Source: an archaeon (GTDB lineage Archaea; Iainarchaeota; Iainarchaeia; Iainarchaeales; CSSED10-239). From it: 7,342 bases of DNA. Of the stretch, positions 1-7,342 are shown piece by piece. The DNA lies in the NCBI GenBank assembly GCA_035390665.1, contig DAOOUC010000015.1:1-7342 (forward strand). The letters run 5' to 3'. A program made the translations under genes and the position numbers. Position 1 is the first letter of the stretch; each line of letters starts with the position of its first letter. The notes under the pieces were generated by a model. The model was not told the DNA's origin and did not search any database. It saw only the letters and a program-made list of their open reading frames with translations.

Positions 1-705
1 CAGACATCAACTTATGTTTATGACACAGGTGCAGCTCCAGAAAATTTAATTGTTGGTTTTATATTTCAAGGAATAGATAGTAATGCAACAATAGATAATG
101 ATCAAAATCTAGTAAGTATAAGAATACCATTTGGAATAAATAGAGCAAATTTAATTCCAATAATTGAAGTAGAAGAAGGTTGTAGTATATATCCAGAAAG
201 TGGTATTTCTCAAAATTTTAATGTGCCTGTAACTTATACAGTAAGTTCAATAACAGGGCAAAGACTTTATACAGTTATAGTAACAAACAATCCACGCGTA
301 TTTGCTCCAATTGCAAGTGTTTCTGGAGGCAATTATAATTTACCAATAACTGTTGAGTTATCAACTCAAACACCTGGAGCAATAATTAAGTACACAACAA
401 ATGGTTCTTTTCCAACATTATCTAGTAATACTTATAATAATCCAATAACAATCAATTCTACAACGATTCTAAAAGCAAAAACTTACCTTTATGTTGGTCC
501 ACTATTGAGTTCAAGTAATTCTTCAAGAGGAAACTCTAGTCCAAAGAACATACAAAATATAGTCCCTGCCCCTTTGGTGTGGTTAAGCAGTAGTGTGTTA
601 ACAGAAGAATATATTTTTCCAAGAAAAACACCAAGTAAAAACAAACACGAAGTAATAACAAAAGAAAAAGAAAAAAAGGAGTTCACACAGAACAGTGAAA
701 AGTAA
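1..705 (+). CDS. Secreted/cell-surface multi-domain protein, C-terminal 234 aa (5' end lies upstream of the window)
   Basis: Frame 1 has no stop from nt 1 to the TAA at 703-705, so the GTG at 223 used by the ORF track is not a required start. Translation of 1-222 reads QTSTYVYDTGAAPENLIVGFIFQGIDSNATIDNDQNLVSIRIPFGINRANLIPIIEVEEGCSIYPESGISQNFN and continues VPVTYTVSSITGQRLYTVIVT. This follows the 'IxF..ID...IxVxVPxG....LxP.I.V..G..I.P.SG...F..PVxYTV....G....YTVxV' pattern typical of beta-sandwich modules in cell-surface proteins. Nt 325-618 (GGNYNLPITVELSTQTPGAIIKYTTNGSFPTLSSNTYNNPITINSTTILKAKTY...SSSVLTEEYIF) matches my recollection of the chitobiase/beta-hexosaminidase C-terminal (Fn3-associated) domain consensus. 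The protein ends in a Lys/Glu-rich tail with no TM segment. Confidence 0.8.
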   Translation, partial: QTSTYVYDTGAAPENLIVGFIFQGIDSNATIDNDQNLVSIRIPFGINRANLIPIIEVEEGCSIYPESGISQNFNVPVTYTVSSITGQRLYTVIVTNNPRVFAPIASVSGGNYNLPITVELSTQTPGAIIKYTTNGSFPTLSSNTYNNPITINSTTILKAKTYLYVGPLLSSSNSSRGNSSPKNIQNIVPAPLVWLSSSVLTEEYIFPRKTPSKNKHEVITKEKEKKEFTQNSEK

Positions 706-713
706 CTGTTGTA

Positions 714-721
714 TTTATAAA
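714..721 (+). promoter_or_regulatory. Candidate archaeal TATA box (TTTATAAA) for the 773-4899 gene cluster
   Basis: TTTATAAA lies in the 67-bp spacer, about 52 nt upstream of ATG 773. A start about 25 nt downstream would leave a short leader containing the AGGTG Shine-Dalgarno at 761-765. AT-rich background makes chance matches likely. Confidence 0.3.
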
Positions 722-772
722 GATTATGATGTATAATTTTCAATAAATAGTATTTTTAAAAGGTGCAAATAG

Positions 773-874
773 ATGTTAACTTCAAAAAAAAAAGGACAGA
801 TTTCTGTTGAAGCTTTAATAATTGTTGGAGTTTTAGTTATTGGAGGAATAATATTTGCGTCTGTTTTTTTAGGA
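773..874 (+). other. Class III (prepilin-type) signal peptide plus hydrophobic pilin N-terminal helix; predicted prepilin-peptidase cleavage between Gly8 and Gln9 (nt 796/797)
   Basis: KKKG|QISVEALII followed by an uninterrupted hydrophobic stretch to Gly34. Compare the SKKGQI(S/A)xE N-termini of EppA-processed Methanococcus pilins (from memory). Confidence 0.75.
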
Positions 875-2458
875 AATATTAATAATCAAACAAAGAAAGC
901 AAACGAATTATCAGGAATTACTGATGATTTTATGAATGATTTAGAGGGATGGAATACTCCAGGTCCAGGTCCTGGTCCAGGAGGAAGTAATTGTGGCAAT
1001 CACGTTTGTGAAAACCCCCCAGAGAATCAAAGTAATTGTTCTGATTGTGAAATACCATCTGATGGTTGTAATGATAATGGCTATTGTGAACCGGAATTAG
1101 GAGAAACTGCTGCAAATTGTGATGATTGTCAAAGTCCAACATTTAGTAATTTTGTTATAAGTAAATATGCACCAACAGGAGATTCCCCAGTTAATTCTAA
1201 ATTTAGTTTAAAAGCAGAAATAACGTCTAGTTATCCTTCTGTAGAAATTTATGATATTAAATTAACTAAATTTGATCCAATTTCATATTCTTGGAGTAAT
1301 TCAAATAAATGTGCAATAAAAGGAACGGCTCCAGATGCAGGAACAGGAATATATCCAGGGACATTATTAATGACAATAGAAGATGTTTCTTTAAAAAATC
1401 ACGGAAAAATTATTGATGAAATCAGTTGTAGTGAAGAAGGAGAATACAGATTTTCAGCATTGGCTAGACCAAAAGGAGTTACAGGAGTGCCTTCTTTATC
1501 AGATGATGAAGCAAAAATTATAACATCAGCACCAGTGGGATGCGGAAATCCAGCAATTTGTGAATCTGGAGAAACCTGTGCAACATGTACAGAATGTTGT
1601 ACCATACCAGGAACATCTTTTGGAGTTTTAATTTCTTCTCCAACAGATCAAAAATATTATAATAATACAGATAATATTAATTTTATTGCAATAACAGCAC
1701 CAGAATTAAAACCTGGAGAAACCGATAGTTGTGTATGGTATGTTAATGAAAAAATAGAGATTCCTTTAACCGGGCAACAAAATAGTTGTTCATTATCACA
1801 AGTTTCTTTATCAGATACTTCTGTCTTTTCAGAAGGATTAAATAAAATTACAGTATATGCTCAAAGAAGTACAACTGCAGGAAAAAAATTAGAAGCTAAC
1901 GCAAGTGTAGGAATATATATCTTAAAACCAATAAATCCAGGAACATTATATTTATTAACACCAAGAAATTTGCTTGTTGGAGAAAATTTTAATTTAATGG
2001 TTTATGGAACAAATCAAGGATCAGTTAATGCCCCAAGAAATATAAATAATTTTACATTTACAGGAAATAAATGTGTAGTAACTTCTTCAACACCAACTTG
2101 TGGAACAACAACAGTAAATGGAACTGATGTTTACTATTGTGATTATCCCGCAATTTGCTCACAGCCAGCATATTCACAAACAGGAGTACATAATCCTACA
2201 GAAATTACAGCCAGTATGACAGGCACAACAGAAACAGCTAAATTTTATTCAGAATATGATTTGTGGTTTGATTTTGGAAATTGTAGTGTGACTGCTACAA
2301 GTTATGGAAAAATGCATGCATGTTTATCATCCTCTAGTGGAATGGGATATAATAGCGATTATTGGAATAATTCTAGTGGATTATTAAAAGCAAATGTGGA
2401 TGTTTCATTTAATATGACAAAAAATATTAATGGTACTTTAAAAGTATATGTGGAATAA
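773..2458 (+). CDS. Large Cys-rich type IV pilin-like (class III signal peptide) surface protein, putative pilus-associated adhesin
   Basis: The ORF is 561 aa. ATG 773 is preceded by AGGTG (761-765) with a 7-nt spacer. The N-terminus MLTSKKKG|QISVEALIIVGVLVIGGIIFASVFLG has a basic n-region, Gly at -1, Gln +1, Ser +3, Glu +5 and about 25 hydrophobic residues. This fits the QxSxExxx(L/I) archaeal class III signal peptide motif (DUF361-type pilins; Szabo et al. 2007). A (PG)4 linker follows, then three short Cys modules, then beta-rich S/T/N-rich sequence with many N-x-S/T sequons. There are 24 Cys in total and no enzymatic motif. Confidence 0.88.
   Translation: MLTSKKKGQISVEALIIVGVLVIGGIIFASVFLGNINNQTKKANELSGITDDFMNDLEGWNTPGPGPGPGGSNCGNHVCENPPENQSNCSDCEIPSDGCNDNGYCEPELGETAANCDDCQSPTFSNFVISKYAPTGDSPVNSKFSLKAEITSSYPSVEIYDIKLTKFDPISYSWSNSNKCAIKGTAPDAGTGIYPGTLLMTIEDVSLKNHGKIIDEISCSEEGEYRFSALARPKGVTGVPSLSDDEAKIITSAPVGCGNPAICESGETCATCTECCTIPGTSFGVLISSPTDQKYYNNTDNINFIAITAPELKPGETDSCVWYVNEKIEIPLTGQQNSCSLSQVSLSDTSVFSEGLNKITVYAQRSTTAGKKLEANASVGIYILKPINPGTLYLLTPRNLLVGENFNLMVYGTNQGSVNAPRNINNFTFTGNKCVVTSSTPTCGTTTVNGTDVYYCDYPAICSQPAYSQTGVHNPTEITASMTGTTETAKFYSEYDLWFDFGNCSVTATSYGKMHACLSSSSGMGYNSDYWNNSSGLLKANVDVSFNMTKNINGTLKVYVE
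959..985 (+). repeat. Hexanucleotide microsatellite CCAGGT CCAGGT CCTGGT CCAGGA GGA encoding the PGPGPGPGG linker
   Basis: Direct reading of 959-985. It is a locally G+C-rich patch containing four CCWGG sites, placed immediately after the pilin-like N-terminal segment. Confidence 0.9.
992..1129 (+). other. Two tandem 4-Cys mini-modules (C-x4/5-C-E-x8/9-C-x2-C)
   Basis: The two modules read CGNHVCENPPENQSNCSDC (C74,C79,C89,C92) and CNDNGYCEPELGETAANCDDC (C99,C105,C116,C119). Both are acidic, with the same Cys spacing pattern. Confidence 0.8.
1541..1600 (+). other. Third, related Cys module (6 Cys)
   Basis: CGNPAICESGETCATCTECC (C257,C263,C269,C272,C275,C276) shares the CGN-x2/3-C-E start and the C-x2-C end with modules I and II. 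It separates two beta-rich regions. Confidence 0.7.
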
Positions 2459-2483
2459 ATAAAAATGGGAGAAAGGAAAAAAT

Positions 2484-2558
2484 ATGAATAAAATAAATTT
2501 GTCAAAGATTTTTTTAATATTAGCGATAGCTATTATTTCATTAAATTTAGTATTTGCA
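2484..2558 (+). other. Sec-type signal peptide (predicted cleavage after VFA, residue 25)
   Basis: MNKINLSKIFLILAIAIISLNLVFA|GS has a basic n-region (K3, K8), a 15-aa hydrophobic core and small residues at -1/-3. There is no Cys lipobox and no G|Q prepilin motif. Confidence 0.7.
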
Positions 2559-4559
2559 GGAAGTATGGCTAAACGTTATAGAATAAGTGGTGATTTAATA
2601 ATTAGTAACAACCTAGATTATGCTTGTCAAAATGGAGGAGATTGGACTTCTGGATCAACTATAGAAGAGAATGAATATGAGAGCGGCACAGGGATAGAAT
2701 TATCTAATGTTAAATTAAATGAGTTTTTTGACAAATTATTTTTTGTCGCGACTCCTGCATCCACATGTAGTTTAGAAATTTGGTCTCCATCTGGAGTAAA
2801 GGTTTATGAAAGATCAGGATTAAATGCAAATGCTATAAAAACAGGTTTAAATGAAGGAATTGTTTTACAAAATGTTGTTGTGGACACAAATTCAACTAAT
2901 ATAACCTTAAATTTTGCTGTAAAAATTAAACATGCAACAGCAGGATATTTATTAGAAACAACAGTAAAAGTACCAAATATTAATAATCAATTATTCATTA
3001 ATGCAGATAATGTAATTGCTACAATAAGTGAAACAGAAAGTGGATTTGATGCAGGCGCAAAACCTGTTTTAATGTTAGAAAAAAGAGAGAATGATGGGCA
3101 GTTTTATTATTTGCCTGTTTGGAGAAGAATAAATACCTATAATATTGCATCTGGGGGAGTAATTCCACAAAATGATTTATCAATTGTTGATAGAAATATG
3201 ACCGGGAAAGATAGTTGGGTTTTATCATGGGATGCCGGTGCAGGTAAAATGAAATGGACAAATGAGATTACAACAAGCATTATTAAAGATGGCACACTAT
3301 TACCTCAAGATTTTAATCCAAATGCAGTTTTTTCAAAAATTGGGGGTACAGTAGTTACTGAGACCGTAGGATCATTTATAACAGGTAGTAATAAATATTT
3401 AAAATTTACACACGACGGAATAGATTATTATTTAAAATTAGAACAAAAGCCAGCTACAGCTAGTTCAATGGAAGTAGGAAGTAATGGTTCTGTAATTGCG
3501 GGTAATACTTATACTAGGACTGCACAAATTAATGCAGTTACTGGTTTAACTTGGGGATTTCCATCAGGAATTACAATCCAATCAGGGCAAGGAACAGCGA
3601 CAGCTACATTTTTAGCCACAGGAATAGGCGCAAAAACAATTACTTTAAATGGGACAACAAATACAGGTTCGCCAATATCTGATTCTTTTACTTTAAATGT
3701 TTCAGACTCAACAAATTTAGAGGTTGGTGGCGACATGACTGTTTCCTTTTCAAGTGGTAGTAGTAATAGTTTTGAAAGAGAAATTGTAGCAACTGGAGTA
3801 AATCAAAGTACAATTAATTGGGAAGTTCTTCCTTCAGGAACAGGAGTTACAATTAATGATGTGTCTCCTGCATCTAATTTAAAAAAGAGAATTACAGTAT
3901 CAACTTACGGAACACGCACAATAAAAATTACTGGAATTTCAGTCTATAGCGGACAAGTTGTAACAGATTCATTTATTTTAACTGCGGCTCAATCTGGAGG
4001 AAGTAATCCACCACCAGGCCCACCAGGAGGAGGAATAAATTGTTTCAAGTCAGGAACACCAGTTTTAACATCTACAGGATATAAACCAATAGAATCAATA
4101 AAACAAGGAGATTTAGTTTATTCTTTAGATGAAAAAACAAATAAAATTGTTTTAACAAAAGTAAATAAATTATTAGTGCATGATACAATATCTTTTGCTC
4201 CAACAATTAAGTTAAAATTAAATAATAATGTAGAATTAATTGTTACAACAAACCATGCATTTTATGATCCTATAGCCAAAGGATATAAGCAATTAAGATT
4301 CTTTACAATAGGAGATAAACTGTTGTATTATAATGGAACAAAAAATACAGAAGTAGAAATCACAAGTATGGAAAAACAAGATGATTTATTAGTTTCATAT
4401 AATTTATCATTAGAATATCCAAATAATTATTTCGTAAATGGTATATTAGTTCATAATGATATAAAAGGTGGAGCTGATATTAATCCAACACCTGGCGGTT
4501 GTTATCAAGAAGGCCCTGGAGGGGTATTGTATTGGTACGATAGTTGTCAAGGAATATAA
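2484..4559 (+). CDS. Secreted surface protein with tandem Ig-like modules and a C-terminal Hint (intein-like) autoprocessing domain
   Basis: The ORF is 691 aa and starts 25 nt after the previous stop, with GGGAG/AAGGA purine-rich SD-like sequence upstream. It has an N-terminal Sec-type signal peptide, an unassigned region of about 300 aa, two homologous modules of about 85-95 aa, the linker GGSNPPPGPPGGG, a Hint domain (residues 520-658) and a 33-aa tail. No TM segment or known anchor motif follows the signal peptide. Confidence 0.92.
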   Translation: MNKINLSKIFLILAIAIISLNLVFAGSMAKRYRISGDLIISNNLDYACQNGGDWTSGSTIEENEYESGTGIELSNVKLNEFFDKLFFVATPASTCSLEIWSPSGVKVYERSGLNANAIKTGLNEGIVLQNVVVDTNSTNITLNFAVKIKHATAGYLLETTVKVPNINNQLFINADNVIATISETESGFDAGAKPVLMLEKRENDGQFYYLPVWRRINTYNIASGGVIPQNDLSIVDRNMTGKDSWVLSWDAGAGKMKWTNEITTSIIKDGTLLPQDFNPNAVFSKIGGTVVTETVGSFITGSNKYLKFTHDGIDYYLKLEQKPATASSMEVGSNGSVIAGNTYTRTAQINAVTGLTWGFPSGITIQSGQGTATATFLATGIGAKTITLNGTTNTGSPISDSFTLNVSDSTNLEVGGDMTVSFSSGSSNSFEREIVATGVNQSTINWEVLPSGTGVTINDVSPASNLKKRITVSTYGTRTIKITGISVYSGQVVTDSFILTAAQSGGSNPPPGPPGGGINCFKSGTPVLTSTGYKPIESIKQGDLVYSLDEKTNKIVLTKVNKLLVHDTISFAPTIKLKLNNNVELIVTTNHAFYDPIAKGYKQLRFFTIGDKLLYYNGTKNTEVEITSMEKQDDLLVSYNLSLEYPNNYFVNGILVHNDIKGGADINPTPGGCYQEGPGGVLYWYDSCQGI
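3462..3986 (+). repeat. Two tandem, divergent Ig-like (Big_2-like) modules at protein level (about residues 327-407 and 408-501)
   Basis: The two modules align by eye: MEVG/LEVG; LTWGFPSGITIQSG versus INWEVLPSGTGVTINDV; ATFLATGIGAKTITLNGTTNTGSPISDSFTLNV versus RITVSTYGTRTIKITGISVYSGQVVTDSFILTA. The nucleotide sequences are not repeated, so the duplication is ancient. Confidence 0.65.
4041..4457 (+). other. Hint domain (mini-intein-sized, BIL / pre-toxin-HINT-like), residues Cys520-Asn658
   Basis: Block A is CFKSGTPVLTSTGYKPIESIKQGDLV. Block B is LIVTTNHAF (T588-x-x-H591). Block F is DLLVSYNLSLEYPNNYFVNG. Block G is ILVHN (H657-N658). The +1 residue is Asp659, which is not Cys/Ser/Thr. At 139 aa there is no room for a homing-endonuclease insert. 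Confidence 0.85.
4458..4556 (+). other. 33-aa C-terminal tail downstream of the Hint domain (potentially released peptide)
   Basis: DIKGGADINPTPGGCYQEGPGGVLYWYDSCQGI is Gly/Pro-rich, has two Cys (C673, C688; C-x14-C) and an aromatic patch, VLYWY. Confidence 0.6.
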
Positions 4560-4566
4560 AATGAAA

Positions 4567-4583
4567 TTTCTTTTTTTCTTTTT
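4567..4583 (+). terminator. Oligo-T tract (TTTCTTTTTTTCTTTTT), possible partial archaeal terminator/attenuator between the Hint gene and the small gene
   Basis: There is a run of seven T (4571-4577) plus five T (4579-4583), starting 8 nt after the stop codon. Archaeal termination commonly occurs at oligo-T. However, the next gene starts only 23 nt later with a strong SD, so read-through is likely. Confidence 0.3.
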
Positions 4584-4605
4584 ATATATATAGGAGGGAG
4601 ATATT

Positions 4606-4899
4606 GTGAAAAATGATAATAAAACAAAAATTTTGTATCTGACATTAGGAATTATAATTGGTGTAGCTTTAACTATGCTTTTTCAAATTACAATATTAGG
4701 AAATGCGAATAAGTCAATAGTAAAAAAAGTAAATACAATTAATTATTATGGATTAGCGGAAGATTGTTTAAATGGTGGAGGAACCGCAATTACAAATCCA
4801 AATGCGCATTATGGAGATGACGGAGTAACATATTATCCAAATGGGTCATTTACATGCAGCGTAAATGGAACTTCCACTACTGTTCCATTACCAGTATAA
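4606..4899 (+). CDS. Small N-terminally membrane-anchored extracytoplasmic protein, two Cys, unknown function
   Basis: The ORF is 97 aa. GTG 4606 is preceded by a strong SD, AGGAGGGAG (4592-4600). MKNDNKTK is followed by the hydrophobic segment ILYLTLGIIIGVALTMLFQITILG (signal anchor; no G|Q/A prepilin site and no AxA site). A 65-aa Gly/Asn/Thr-rich ectodomain follows, with C54 and C84. Confidence 0.7.
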   Translation: MKNDNKTKILYLTLGIIIGVALTMLFQITILGNANKSIVKKVNTINYYGLAEDCLNGGGTAITNPNAHYGDDGVTYYPNGSFTCSVNGTSTTVPLPV

Positions 4900-4900
4900 A

Positions 4901-4936
4901 TCTTTTCCCTTTTGCTTTCTTTTTTCCTTTCTCTTT
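4901..4936 (+). terminator. 36-nt polypyrimidine/oligo-T tract, probable archaeal terminator of the surface-protein cluster
   Basis: TCTTTTCCCTTTTGCTTTCTTTTTTCCTTTCTCTTT is 35/36 pyrimidines, includes T4 and T6 runs, and starts 2 nt after the TAA at 4897-4899. Confidence 0.5.
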
Positions 4937-5193
4937 ATAAACCTTTTGCCTCTATAATTTATTCTATATACATATAATTTTTAATCGATTAGAGTTTTTT
5001 CTAATCTCTTTAGACCTTTATTAAAGTTAATCTTTTGATTGACTTTTCTGTAGACTGTTTGCTGGTACCTTAATCAGTGGAATGGCACTTTGCTGTTTTG
5101 CCACTAACCAACATTTAAATGCAGAAACATTAAATACTGGAGATTTTTCTCAAGTATCTGTTTCTACATTTTTTCTGTTCTACAATTTTAATA

Positions 5194-5201
5194 TTTAAAT
5201 A
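5194..5201 (+). promoter_or_regulatory. Candidate TATA box (TTTAAATA) of the ribosomal-protein operon, centred in a 14-bp perfect palindrome AATATTTAAATATT (5190-5203)
   Basis: It matches the archaeal TATA consensus TTTAWATA and lies 37-44 nt upstream of ATG 5238. The implied transcription start would be about 10-15 nt before the ATG, and no SD precedes rpl3, which is consistent with a very short leader. Confidence 0.4.
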
Positions 5202-5237
5202 TTGATTAAATAAAAATTTGACAAAAAAAGATCATTT

Positions 5238-6224
5238 ATGAGTAATCGAAATAAACCAAGAGCAGGTTCAATGGCATTTTACCCAAGAGTAAGAGCAGAT
5301 AGTATTGTGCCAAAGTTTAATACTTACGGGGATGTCCCAAAAACAATTAAAGGCTGTAAACCTCTTTGCTTTTATGCTATAAAAGCAGGAAGTACCTATG
5401 TTATGGCAAAGAATGCAAAAAAAGGTGCATCAACTTATGGTCAAGAGATTTCAGTACCAGTAACAATTGTTGAAACTCCTGATTTAAAAATCGTAGGTGC
5501 AAGATTCTATAAACACCATTCAGTAAATGCAGGAAAAAAAGCAATCTTTGAGTTTACAAACCAAGATGCTGATTTTAAAAAAAGAGTTACAGGAAACAAA
5601 CAGAAAAAAACTATTTCTTATGAAGATGCATTGAAAAGAAAAGATGAAGCTGATTCTATTGTCTTAATAGCGACAGTTAACTACAAGGCAACAGGAATAG
5701 GCCAAAAGAAACCAGTCATAGTTGAAGTACCATTAACAGGGACTTATGAAGAACAATTAAACTATTTAAAAGAAAAATTAAATAAGACAATTTCAGTTGA
5801 TGAAGTCTTTAAGGTTGATGATTATTTAGATGCTAAAGGAATAACAACAGGTTATGGAACAACAGGTGTTGTTGAGAGATTTAATATAAAAGTTCAAAGA
5901 AGAAAAGCAAATAAATCTCAAAGACATGTTGGTTCAATTAATCCATGGCACCCAGCAACAATTATGTTTAATGTTGCAAGAGCAGGACAATATGGATTCC
6001 ATAATAGAACAGAGTCTAATAAAAGACTATTAATGATTGATTCTGATATTAATAAAGTTAATAGAAAAGGTGGCTTTAAAAACTACGGTTTATTAAAAAA
6101 CAAATATATTTTAGTTGCAGGAACTTTGCCAGGAACAACTAAAAGAGTAATTGTTTTAAGACAAACAATAAGACCACAAAGAACAAAATTAGAAGTTACA
6201 GATATTAATTATATTGCTAAATAA
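5238..6224 (+). CDS. rpl3: 50S ribosomal protein uL3 (archaeal L3)
   Basis: The ORF is 328 aa. KPRAGSMAFYPRVRA, ISVPVTIVETP and GSINPWHPATIMFNVARAGQYGFHNRTESNKRLL correspond to conserved archaeal L3 blocks (compare RPRRGSLAFSPRKRA and PRAGQMGFHQRTE in methanogen L3, from memory). Length and position ahead of L4 fit. Confidence 0.97.
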   Translation: MSNRNKPRAGSMAFYPRVRADSIVPKFNTYGDVPKTIKGCKPLCFYAIKAGSTYVMAKNAKKGASTYGQEISVPVTIVETPDLKIVGARFYKHHSVNAGKKAIFEFTNQDADFKKRVTGNKQKKTISYEDALKRKDEADSIVLIATVNYKATGIGQKKPVIVEVPLTGTYEEQLNYLKEKLNKTISVDEVFKVDDYLDAKGITTGYGTTGVVERFNIKVQRRKANKSQRHVGSINPWHPATIMFNVARAGQYGFHNRTESNKRLLMIDSDINKVNRKGGFKNYGLLKNKYILVAGTLPGTTKRVIVLRQTIRPQRTKLEVTDINYIAK

Positions 6225-6245
6225 TTTAAAAGGTATTGATTATCT

Positions 6246-7058
6246 ATGAAAGCAAACATTTATGATTTAGAAGGAAAAGTAATAAAGGAAGTAGAATTAC
6301 CTGAATATTTTAAAGAAGACTATAGACCTGATCTAATTAAAAGAGCAGTAATCTCTAGCCAGTCTAAAGAATATCAAGCAATGGGTGTTTCTCCTTACTC
6401 AAATAGAGGATACACTGCAGAATATAGAGGTAGAAGAAAAGAAAACAAAGCAAATATTACTATTAATACAGGTAAAGCAAGACTTCCAAGAACAAAAAAC
6501 AAAAGAGTATTAATGGCAGGAAGAGTTATGGGTGTAAGTCAAGCAGTTGGCGGCCCAAAGGCACATCCTCCAGTAGTTGCTAAAAACTTAATTAAAAAGA
6601 TAAATAGTAAAGAAAGAACAAAAGCTATAATTTCAGCAGTAGCCGCAACTGCAAACCAAAGACTTGTTTTAGAAAGAGGCCACATATTACCTGAGAAAAT
6701 TACTTTACCAATTATTTTTGATAATAAATTTGAAGGCTTAACAAAGACTTCTCAAATCTTTAATGTTCTTGAGAAATTCGGATTAGACAAAGATGTAATT
6801 AAAGCAAAAGACAAGAAAACAATAAGAGCAGGAAAAGGAAAAATGAGAGGAAGAAAATACAAGAGAAGAAAAAGTATTCTTTTCGTTTTAGCAGACAGTA
6901 AGAATTACAAGGCTTTCGGTAACCTTGAAGGCGCCGATGTTATAACTGCAAAACAATTGTCAATCAAAGAATTAGCTCCAGGAACACATGCTGGAAGATT
7001 AACAATATATAGTCAAGCAGCAGTTGAAGAATTAAAGAAAAGATTTGGAAATCAATAA
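6246..7058 (+). CDS. rpl4: 50S ribosomal protein uL4 (archaeal L4/L1e type)
   Basis: The ORF is 270 aa. MKANIYDLEGK..., DYRPDLIKRAV, QAVGGPKAHPP, KERTKAIISAVAATAN and IRAGKGKMRGRKYKRRKSILFV are hallmark archaeal L4 blocks. It starts 21 nt after rpl3. Confidence 0.97.
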   Translation: MKANIYDLEGKVIKEVELPEYFKEDYRPDLIKRAVISSQSKEYQAMGVSPYSNRGYTAEYRGRRKENKANITINTGKARLPRTKNKRVLMAGRVMGVSQAVGGPKAHPPVVAKNLIKKINSKERTKAIISAVAATANQRLVLERGHILPEKITLPIIFDNKFEGLTKTSQIFNVLEKFGLDKDVIKAKDKKTIRAGKGKMRGRKYKRRKSILFVLADSKNYKAFGNLEGADVITAKQLSIKELAPGTHAGRLTIYSQAAVEELKKRFGNQ

Positions 7059-7073
7059 AGAATGTGATATTTT

Positions 7074-7342
7074 ATGAAAAAATTAGAATTTTACGAAATA
7101 ATTGAATATCCTGTTATTACAGAAAAAACAGTTAACATGATATCAACAACAAATAGAATTTCTTTTGTTGTAAATAAGCTTGCAACAAAAAGCGAAATAA
7201 AAGCAGCTGTTGAAAAATTATATAATGTTAAAGTAAAAACAGTAAATACATTATTTGATAGAAAAAATAAAAAGAAAGCATTTGTAACTTTACAAAAAGG
7301 ATTTAATGCTCAGGATTTAGCTAATAAACTTGGAATAATATA
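7074..7342 (+). CDS. rpl23: 50S ribosomal protein uL23, essentially complete (runs to the window edge; the last two nt 'ta' may be the start of a stop codon)
   Basis: This gene is not in the ORF track because no stop falls inside the window. ATG 7074 is preceded by GTGAT (7064-7068, SD-like). The translation is [89 protein letters not shown]. The YPxxTEK, ATKxEIKxAVEKLxxVKVxxVNT and KKAxVxL blocks and the L3-L4-L23 order are canonical. Confidence 0.93.

Follow-up and report, generated by a model that had tools for sequence, protein, structure and literature searches.

A predicted type A BIL/PT-HINT autoprocessing domain on a strain-variable archaeal surface protein

Bacterial intein-like (BIL) domains by definition lack a nucleophile at the +1 position; those of type A keep a C-terminal His-Asn and can splice, with cleavage as the dominant outcome, and when they ligate it is the free amine of the released C-fragment that attacks the thioester (PMC4031507). 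BILs sit in hypervariable regions of non-conserved secreted proteins (PMC7765530), and in BIL2 of Tetrahymena BUBL an isopeptide bond is formed from the C-terminus of the N-extein to a Lys (PMC8616854). Here we analyzed a 7,342-nucleotide (nt) stretch of archaeal DNA (contig DAOOUC010000015.1 of assembly GCA_035390665.1, forward strand, hereafter the window) which encodes a 691-aa surface protein carrying a Hint domain close to its C-terminus.

The closest described systems are the type A BILs (Amitai et al. 2003; Dassa et al. 2004; CthBIL4, 2LWY, Aranko et al. 2013), with which the window's Hint shares the fold, Cys1, TxxH, His-Asn and the missing +1 nucleophile, and which likewise lie in hypervariable regions of non-conserved secreted proteins. 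Structure 2LWY, a BIL of Clostridium thermocellum, was the best PDB match by sequence (E=8e-8) and gave the highest TM-score (TMt 0.89). The window's domain differs from these BILs in that its host appears to be a DPANN-like archaeon rather than a bacterium, in that it stands at the extreme C-terminus with a 33-aa tail behind it, and in that its activity is predicted. BIL2 of Tetrahymena thermophila BUBL1 (6Y75/6TMM; Chiarini et al. 2021), next by sequence, was the top Foldseek match (E ~3e-10, TMt 0.77-0.79, 24-25% identity). It too has no canonical +1 nucleophile and a conserved Lys near the C-junction, fitting Lys-directed ligation, whereas the BUBL BILs are found in the eukaryotic cytoplasm with ubiquitin-like (Ubl) domains on their flanks and the window's Hint is extracellular by prediction and has no Ubl domains.

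Among Pfam families the best score was that of the PT-HINT domain of polymorphic toxins (PF07591; Zhang et al. 2012), at 45-48 bits over the full length. The window's protein resembles these toxins in the C-terminal position of the domain in a secreted multidomain protein, in C-terminal regions exchanged between strains and in the small downstream gene of some alleles; it differs in that no toxin domain is recognisable, most tails are 17-36 aa long, most alleles have no downstream gene and the locus holds no orphan toxin or immunity cassettes. Hedgehog HhC/Hog domains have the same Hint fold and Cys1 thioester chemistry and also follow a secreted domain for signalling or adhesion. Unlike them, the window's Hint has no sterol-recognition region and ends in His-Asn, and HhC (1AT0) was the weaker match (Foldseek rank 21, TMt 0.76, 14% identity), with Pfam Hint PF01079 at 22.6-24.3 bits, under its 29.7 cutoff. 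Canonical mini-inteins share blocks A, B, F and G, the 139-aa size and the missing endonuclease, but the window's Hint has no +1 Cys/Ser/Thr and its host is extracellular and hypervariable, not a conserved housekeeping protein.

The Hint domain and its relatives

A preliminary description of the window, made from the sequence alone, had proposed a complete Hint domain at residues 520-658. Translation, the PT-HINT score and the comparison of AlphaFold2 (AF2) models by Foldseek all confirmed it. The parts of the protein that bear on the domain are the following.

2484-4559, plus strand: open reading frame (ORF) of the Hint-bearing surface protein, 691 aa, stop codon at 4557-4559
3999-4040, plus strand: Gly/Pro linker GGSNPPPGPPGGGIN, residues 506-519, ending in Asn519 (position -1), from translation
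4041-4457, plus strand: Hint domain, residues 520-658 (139 aa), assigned to the type A BIL/PT-HINT class by translation, Pfam and AF2/Foldseek
4458-4556, plus strand: 33-aa tail, residues 659-691, with a [DE]-x-K C-flank (D659, K661) and an aromatic hairpin motif, Cys673...Cys688 (GGC[YW]..G..W..C)

Direct translation placed Cys520 at 4041-4043 (Cys520-Phe-Lys-Ser spans 4041-4052), block B T588-T-N-H591 at 4245-4256 and His657-Asn658 at 4452-4457, followed by Asp659 at +1. PT-HINT aligned to residues 527-659 over positions 2-137 of its 137-position profile (E=1.4e-11, 45.2 bits against a gathering cutoff of 27.7), and the isolated domain scored 48.1 bits, which by sequence puts the match far above chance. 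Intein_splicing, Hint_2 and Hint gave weaker partial matches, mostly N-terminal, and the TIGR models intein_Nterm and intein_Cterm scored near their cutoffs.

Across the Hint domain, an AF2 model made for residues 508-691 from nine alleles had a pLDDT of 87-96. It superposed on BIL structures ahead of mini-inteins: Foldseek ranked BUBL BIL2 (6Y75/6TMM) first, then CthBIL 2LWY (rmsd 1.8 A), then the mini-inteins, and the full-length AF2 model gave the same Hint matches. At only 139 aa the domain has no endonuclease insert. Cys1, TxNH and HN were invariant in all alleles examined, among them the nine aligned ones, which are 38-59% identical to the window's Hint. The +1 residue of the alleles is D, K, R, E or I. 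With its catalytic residues intact across orthologues the domain does not appear decayed, and the decayed relic that the preliminary description had allowed for is not what the alignment points to. The fold with its N-terminal nucleophile and TxxH, the C-terminal His-Asn, the non-nucleophilic +1 residue and the variable secreted host are together those of a type A BIL. Judged by sequence and model, the domain is a type A BIL/pretoxin-HINT autoprocessing module and not a homing intein.

NCBI names the exact protein "polymorphic toxin-type HINT domain-containing protein", source "archaeon", which settles a doubt voiced in the preliminary description as to whether archaeal examples had been catalogued. 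To place the domain within its family, a profile of Hint plus tail was searched against 1.84 billion cluster representatives and matched 23,278 proteins at E<=1e-3, 5,031 at <=1e-10 and 133 at <=1e-30; this exhaustive search was used in place of a word-indexed homologue search with Hint and tail alone, which gave no matches. Counts for the clade were taken from the best 153 proteins, re-annotated with a local HMM. Position 1 was Cys in 330/330 domains and the terminal His-Asn was present in 310/317. At +1 the same 317 domains had Lys (194), Ala (25), Ser (15), Asp (13), Gly (12), Cys (12), Arg (10) or Thr (8) as the commonest residues, with a nucleophile (C/S/T) in only 35 and a non-nucleophile in 282. 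The non-nucleophilic +1 residue, which had first been taken as remarkable, is therefore the norm of the clade and part of the definition of a BIL (PMC4031507).

Gly-rich N-flanks are typical of the clade as well (G at -1 in 149/330 domains). In about 60 of the 153 proteins the last Hint is followed by a tail of <=60 residues, and many of these tails are 2-20 residues long, after a Gly-rich linker, in a protein with an N-terminal signal-like segment; two such short-tail proteins lie in clearly bacterial gene neighbourhoods. Because so many relatives share it, bacterial neighbourhoods included, a C-terminal Hint with a short tail on a secreted protein is, to judge from these sequences, a common architecture in both domains of life. 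Within this very large class, which had been catalogued before, the window's Hint is nothing out of the ordinary. A literature search combining Hint/PT-HINT with DPANN or archaea found nothing relevant. Many other close relatives, along with P0007, P0008, P0012, P0013 and P0027, carry 2-8 tandem Hints spaced 2-4 residues apart (HN/KGG/CF, HN/KGC/CF), and these arrays often come right after a short N-terminal segment and are followed by a Tim44-like domain.

A hypervariable island beside the ribosomal operon

Six contigs, taken from ENA, JGI, Logan and NCBI assemblies made independently, encode the identical 691-aa protein, which is for that reason not an assembly artefact. Its gene lies in an island bordered by a CHB_HEX_C-domain gene on one side and the ribosomal L3 operon on the other; the flanks of the island are 87-100% identical in nucleotide sequence between strains, its interior is replaced and its right boundary is constant (~4916-4921). 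A full-length protein search returned five proteins of 35-100% identity, and further alleles at the same chromosomal position came from a profile search and from L3-anchored scans of genomes and metagenomes. A locus search with the full-protein alignment in genome and metagenome contigs had returned no loci, where L3 anchoring succeeded. Loci and proteins are given below by their L and P numbers.

945-4916, no strand: strain-variable island, maximal extent, from comparisons with L005, L007 and L053
2484-2558, plus strand: predicted Sec signal peptide, residues 1-25 (...NLVFA/GS), from hydropathy, with the site read by eye
2559-3458, plus strand: N-terminal domain, residues 26-325, common to most alleles of the locus
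3459-3998, plus strand: two Ig-like beta-sandwich domains, residues 326-505, pLDDT 84-92, the most variable part
773-2458, plus strand: type IV pilin-like protein, 561 aa, class III signal KKG/QISVE, the upstream neighbour in the same variable island

Three comparisons illustrate how the island varies. Against L005 the window was 93-100% identical over most of 401-3000 (a few 100-nt bins at 76-88%) and again from 5001, and 38-71% identical over ~3001-4900 save for the start of the small downstream gene, which codes for a transmembrane (TM) segment (86%); the N-terminal ~170 residues of the surface protein were 93-100% identical at the nucleotide level and the remainder was divergent. L007 had flanks 99-100% identical to those of the window, lacked the small downstream gene and carried in place of the whole Hint gene another allele, 35% identical. 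L053, whose L3 is 98% identical, aligned only with window 150-944 and 4921-5913. A single gene fills its interior; the encoded protein of 1400 aa carries a pilin-type (class III) signal and, near its C-terminus, a Hint 46% identical to that of the window, with a 54-aa three-Cys tail.

Of the alleles examined upstream of L3, all but one carry a C-terminal Hint. The domain is thus retained through complete allele replacement, including on the unrelated 1400-aa protein of L053. The exception, L009 (1913-3784), keeps the signal peptide and the N-terminal domain and has no Hint, an unrelated C-terminal half and no small downstream gene. The protein of L052 (79-5358) has 1760 aa, and behind its C-terminal Hint comes a Cys-rich tail of 113 aa without a Pfam match, the longest observed at the locus and the strongest candidate for a genuine effector domain at the C-terminus.

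Between distant alleles the Hint is the best-conserved segment, with 47-52% identity where the N-terminal domain has 25-36% and the Ig region 12-24%, and in P0001 and P0002, which are 87% identical overall, Hint and tail are identical and the Ig region is at 69%. The phylogeny of the domain is mosaic relative to that of the N-terminal domain. Since the Hint is the most conserved part of the protein and its catalytic residues are invariant, the sequences argue that a decaying relic is excluded. They also indicate that the surface-protein gene is exchanged between strains as a cassette, in a hypervariable setting that by sequence is the one published for BILs (PMC7765530).

A Kyte-Doolittle scan found one hydrophobic segment in the 691-aa protein, at residues 2-30, which fits a cleaved Sec signal with no further TM segment, as first proposed; the cleavage site VFA/GS was read by eye. 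A lipoprotein anchor was ruled out by the absence of a lipobox Cys, and PGF-CTERM-type sorting by hydropathy, the tail being without a C-terminal TM segment. The N-terminal domain was traced with a local HMM in the proteins of L005-L007, L009, L010 and L044-L046, at 25-92% identity to P0001. Its AF2 model (residues 26-325) was poor, and the domain is possibly an assembly or attachment part. The Ig-like region gave a weak PKD_6 match and Foldseek matches to Ig, adhesin and S-layer proteins. It was 69% identical to that of P0002, 12-36% to other Hint-bearing alleles and 7% to the Hint-less L009 ORF.

The upstream pilin-like protein has a weak Class_IIIsignal match (E=0.031), with the motif visible in the sequence and a Glu at +5, a hydrophobic segment at residues 7-38 and conserved synteny. 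Its gene includes a Cys-rich stretch where the DNA is 76-86% identical to L005, against 92-100% around it. Upstream of the island, window 1-705 (plus strand; 18-1601 in L010) is the 3' part of a conserved gene with repeated CHB_HEX_C_1/Fn3_assoc (chitobiase/hexosaminidase C-terminal) domains, and the encoded protein ends in a Lys/Glu-rich tail. Downstream, window 5238-7342 (plus strand) covers the first genes (L3, L4, L23) of an archaeal operon for ribosomal proteins; the intergenic stretch of ~340 nt in front of it is 99-100% conserved from strain to strain.

The operon downstream of the Hint gene reads L3-L4-L23-L2-S19-L22-S3-L29-SUI1-RNase P p29-S17-L14-..., including L32e and L19e, an arrangement that is archaeal by its gene content and order. 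The G+C content is ~30%. The L3 protein is 80-90% identical to that of several metagenome-assembled genomes (MAGs); among named lineages, of which Iainarchaeum, Aenigmatarchaeota, Woesearchaeota and Micrarchaeota come nearest, identity is <=45%, from which we infer a DPANN-like archaeal lineage as the host. Rfam and tRNA scans of the whole window gave nothing; at 4041-4559, those scans and the ORF list gave no Rfam family, no tRNA and no minus-strand ORF of >=60 aa.

Tail, downstream membrane protein and proposed processing

The remaining features follow the stop codon of the Hint gene.

4567-4590, plus strand: T-rich direct repeat, copy 1, directly after the Hint-gene stop
4606-4899, plus strand: 97-aa single-pass membrane protein, N-terminal TM residues 7-34, ~60-aa ectodomain, two invariant Cys
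4916-4939, plus strand: T-rich direct repeat, copy 2, after the small-gene stop, marking the right boundary of the island

Tails at the locus range from Gly/Asp-rich stubs of 17-22 aa up to 113 aa. Hairpin tails of 33-36 residues with the pattern GGC[YW]-x5-8-G-x2-3-W-x1-3-C were found in P0001/2, P0003, P0004, P0006 and P0010, and stubs of 17-22 Gly/Asp-rich residues without Cys in P0005, P0014, P0016/L010, P0018 and L049. AF2 predicted the beta hairpin Cys673-Cys688 at low confidence. Pfam at E<=10 gave no match for the 33-aa tail, the 54-aa tail of L053 or the 113-aa tail of L052. A Lys is present within +1..+3 after His-Asn in 13/13 alleles, commonly as [DE]-x-K-[HG]-[GD], and in 237/315 clade domains against ~16% expected by composition, with Lys at +1 in 61%. 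While not proving it, this conserved Lys fits amine-directed resolution of the thioester by analogy with known BILs.

The small gene was present in all four hairpin-tail alleles of known context (window, L005, L006 and L044/L048) and absent from the six other Hint-bearing alleles (L007, L010/L050, L045, L049, L052 and L053) and from the Hint-less L009. Its homologues encode proteins of 96-108 aa (L005 4186-4512, L006 3877-4188, L044 3787-4077) in which the TM part is conserved, the ectodomain is divergent (86% vs 59-64% nucleotide identity) and the two Cys are invariant; no Pfam (E<=10) or NCBIfam family matched the 97-aa protein. Because the flanks of L007 are 99-100% identical to the window and the small gene is nonetheless absent there, the association between tail and small gene does not seem to reflect only shared whole-genome ancestry. 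The hairpin tail travels with the 97-aa membrane protein, and the two therefore probably interact. The two T-rich repeats are 83% identical (a repeat scan gave no others) and bracket the small gene exactly where L007 lacks it, the end of the L007 Hint gene joining window 4916. They are likely to be archaeal terminators, possibly the joint at which the small gene is gained or lost, or both.

P0003, P0004 and P0006 (L005 2097-4154, L006 1757-3856) have an extra Cys at -2 (PC[FY]/CF) together with an extra tail Cys at +6/+7. The pair suggests a disulfide across the Hint junctions or, if the product is ligated, a small loop; it is confined to one clade and represents a single evolutionary event.

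The explanation that we favor, and consider probable, is that autoprocessing of the type A BIL kind matures a Sec-exported, strain-variable Ig-domain surface protein at its tip. Behind it stand the observed family, fold, residue conservation, context and co-occurrence; the chemistry is drawn from the type A BILs that have been characterised, and the interaction with the small protein from the shared occurrence. Once the protein is exported and folded, Cys520 would attack the carbonyl of Asn519, and an N-to-S acyl shift assisted by Thr588 and His591 of block B would produce a thioester. Asn658 would then cyclise with the help of His657, cutting off the 33-aa tail. The thioester would mainly be hydrolysed, freeing a 494-aa N-fragment, while a minor part would undergo aminolysis, with the tail's newly freed alpha-amine or the side chain of the conserved Lys661 as the attacking group, rejoining the tail to the N-fragment without the Hint. 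The net effect would be that the Hint removes itself from the exposed tip of the surface protein. In the window's allele the hairpin tail, free or religated, would probably bind the ectodomain of the small membrane protein.

Several points weigh against this explanation. Cleavage, the ratio of cleavage to ligation and the fate of the thioester all follow from analogy. The tail was modelled with low confidence (pLDDT 44-57), and its association with the small protein comes from ~10 alleles of one lineage. Some alleles have 17-22 aa Gly/Asp tails and relatives have tails of 2-5 aa; the tail is often dispensable and ligation for that reason cannot be the general purpose. Autoprocessing as proposed does not readily account for the conservation of the terminal HN despite dispensable tails, and the orthologue L009 does without any Hint.

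If the system were polymorphic-toxin-like, the PT-HINT would free the C-terminal tail (in the window's allele a 33-aa disulfide hairpin, in others Cys-rich tails of 54-113 aa) as an effector or signal peptide and the 97-aa protein would be its immunity protein or receptor. PT-HINT is indeed the top Pfam family, above its gathering cutoff, and NCBI names the protein accordingly; near-identical strains swap C-terminal regions, tail type and downstream small gene are gained or lost together, and where the tail diverges so does the ectodomain of the small protein, whose TM part stays conserved. Pfam, however, detected no toxin domain in any tail, five of the ten distinct Hint-bearing alleles end in 17-22 aa Gly/Asp tails, and no downstream gene follows in L007, L010 and L045, which have stub tails and a known downstream region, or in L049. 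The window's tail is anionic (net ~-3, from sequence), unlike most membrane-active peptides; P0001 and P0002 have an identical tail and a varying Ig region, the reverse of the toxin-tip pattern; and the ribosomal operon comes directly, with no orphan cassettes downstream. We regard this alternative as unlikely. Release of the tail as an effector, which the preliminary description had offered as its second choice, is weakened: the tails, from 17-22 aa stubs to 113 aa, have no family match. In its favor is the co-occurrence of the hairpin tail with a small membrane protein.

That description had set more store by a Hedgehog-style transfer, arguing from the lack of an anchor, and in this it found no support: HhC was a poorer match than the BILs, no region like the sterol-recognition region follows the Hint, and L053 has a pilin anchor. 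In its wider Hedgehog- or BUBL-like form, the proposal is that the Asn519 thioester is captured by an external lipid, envelope polymer, partner protein or host-surface amine, giving the anchorless N-fragment a covalent anchor or gluing a symbiont covalently to its host. The mature N-fragment does lack a TM segment and lipobox, a thioester is an obligatory intermediate of Hint chemistry (PMC4031507), conjugation of BILs to Lys side chains has a precedent (PMC8616854) in the BUBL BIL2 that was also the top structural match, and tails of 2-5 aa are common after C-terminal Hints, suggesting that the reaction on the N-side is what selection sees. The strict terminal HN would nevertheless be needless for pure N-side transfer, and Hog domains are without it; no adduct-recognition (SRR-like) segment follows the Hint, the allele with a pilin anchor has that anchor at its N-terminus, and the conserved N-terminal domain, not the C-terminus, is the obvious attachment candidate. 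We think such a transfer improbable. Equally improbable, though a more specific conjecture, is that the Hint at the distal tip of the surface protein acts as a single-use 'chemical harpoon' or ligase whose thioester is caught by a specific amine. Its candidate amines, put forward with as little confidence, are the Lys at +1..+3, the co-varying 97-aa membrane protein and a component of the host-cell surface.

A selfish or neutral intein-like passenger, or a decaying relic, of no use to the host protein would agree with the domain-free orthologue L009 and with the mosaic domain phylogeny. The domain has no homing endonuclease, +1 nucleophile or conserved insertion site, its catalytic residues are invariant, it is the most conserved part of a fast-evolving protein, and it was kept through complete allele replacements, including on the unrelated 1400-aa protein. 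We hold this to be very improbable. The preliminary description had already argued against a selfish intein from the missing nucleophile, endonuclease and conserved host, and that argument stands, strengthened by the hypervariable host and by L009. A canonical intein was ruled out by Asp659 at +1, by the hypervariable host and by L009, which has no domain and unrelated sequence at that place.

Implications for C-terminal BIL domains

As a domain call our analysis adds little: the protein was already annotated as PT-HINT and a missing +1 nucleophile is standard for BILs. The interest lies in the setting, an archaeon that keeps an intact Hint on whatever surface protein fills a hypervariable island beside its ribosomal operon. 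What is added is the hypervariable island itself, the retention of the Hint through allele replacement, the Lys near the C-junction and the coupling of tail and small protein. DPANN-like archaea are thought to depend on physical attachment to their hosts. If the improbable harpoon were true, it would allow covalent anchoring or host attachment without sortase or ATP, and cassette exchange would tune partner specificity.

The locus offers a natural series of alleles: a hairpin tail with its partner membrane protein, stubs, long tails, a fusion to a pilin, and a form with no Hint at all. The series could be used to study the function of C-terminal BIL domains in secreted proteins. Their purpose has been a question since BILs were described in 2003. 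It concerns thousands of bacterial and archaeal proteins, and this locus makes it somewhat more tractable.

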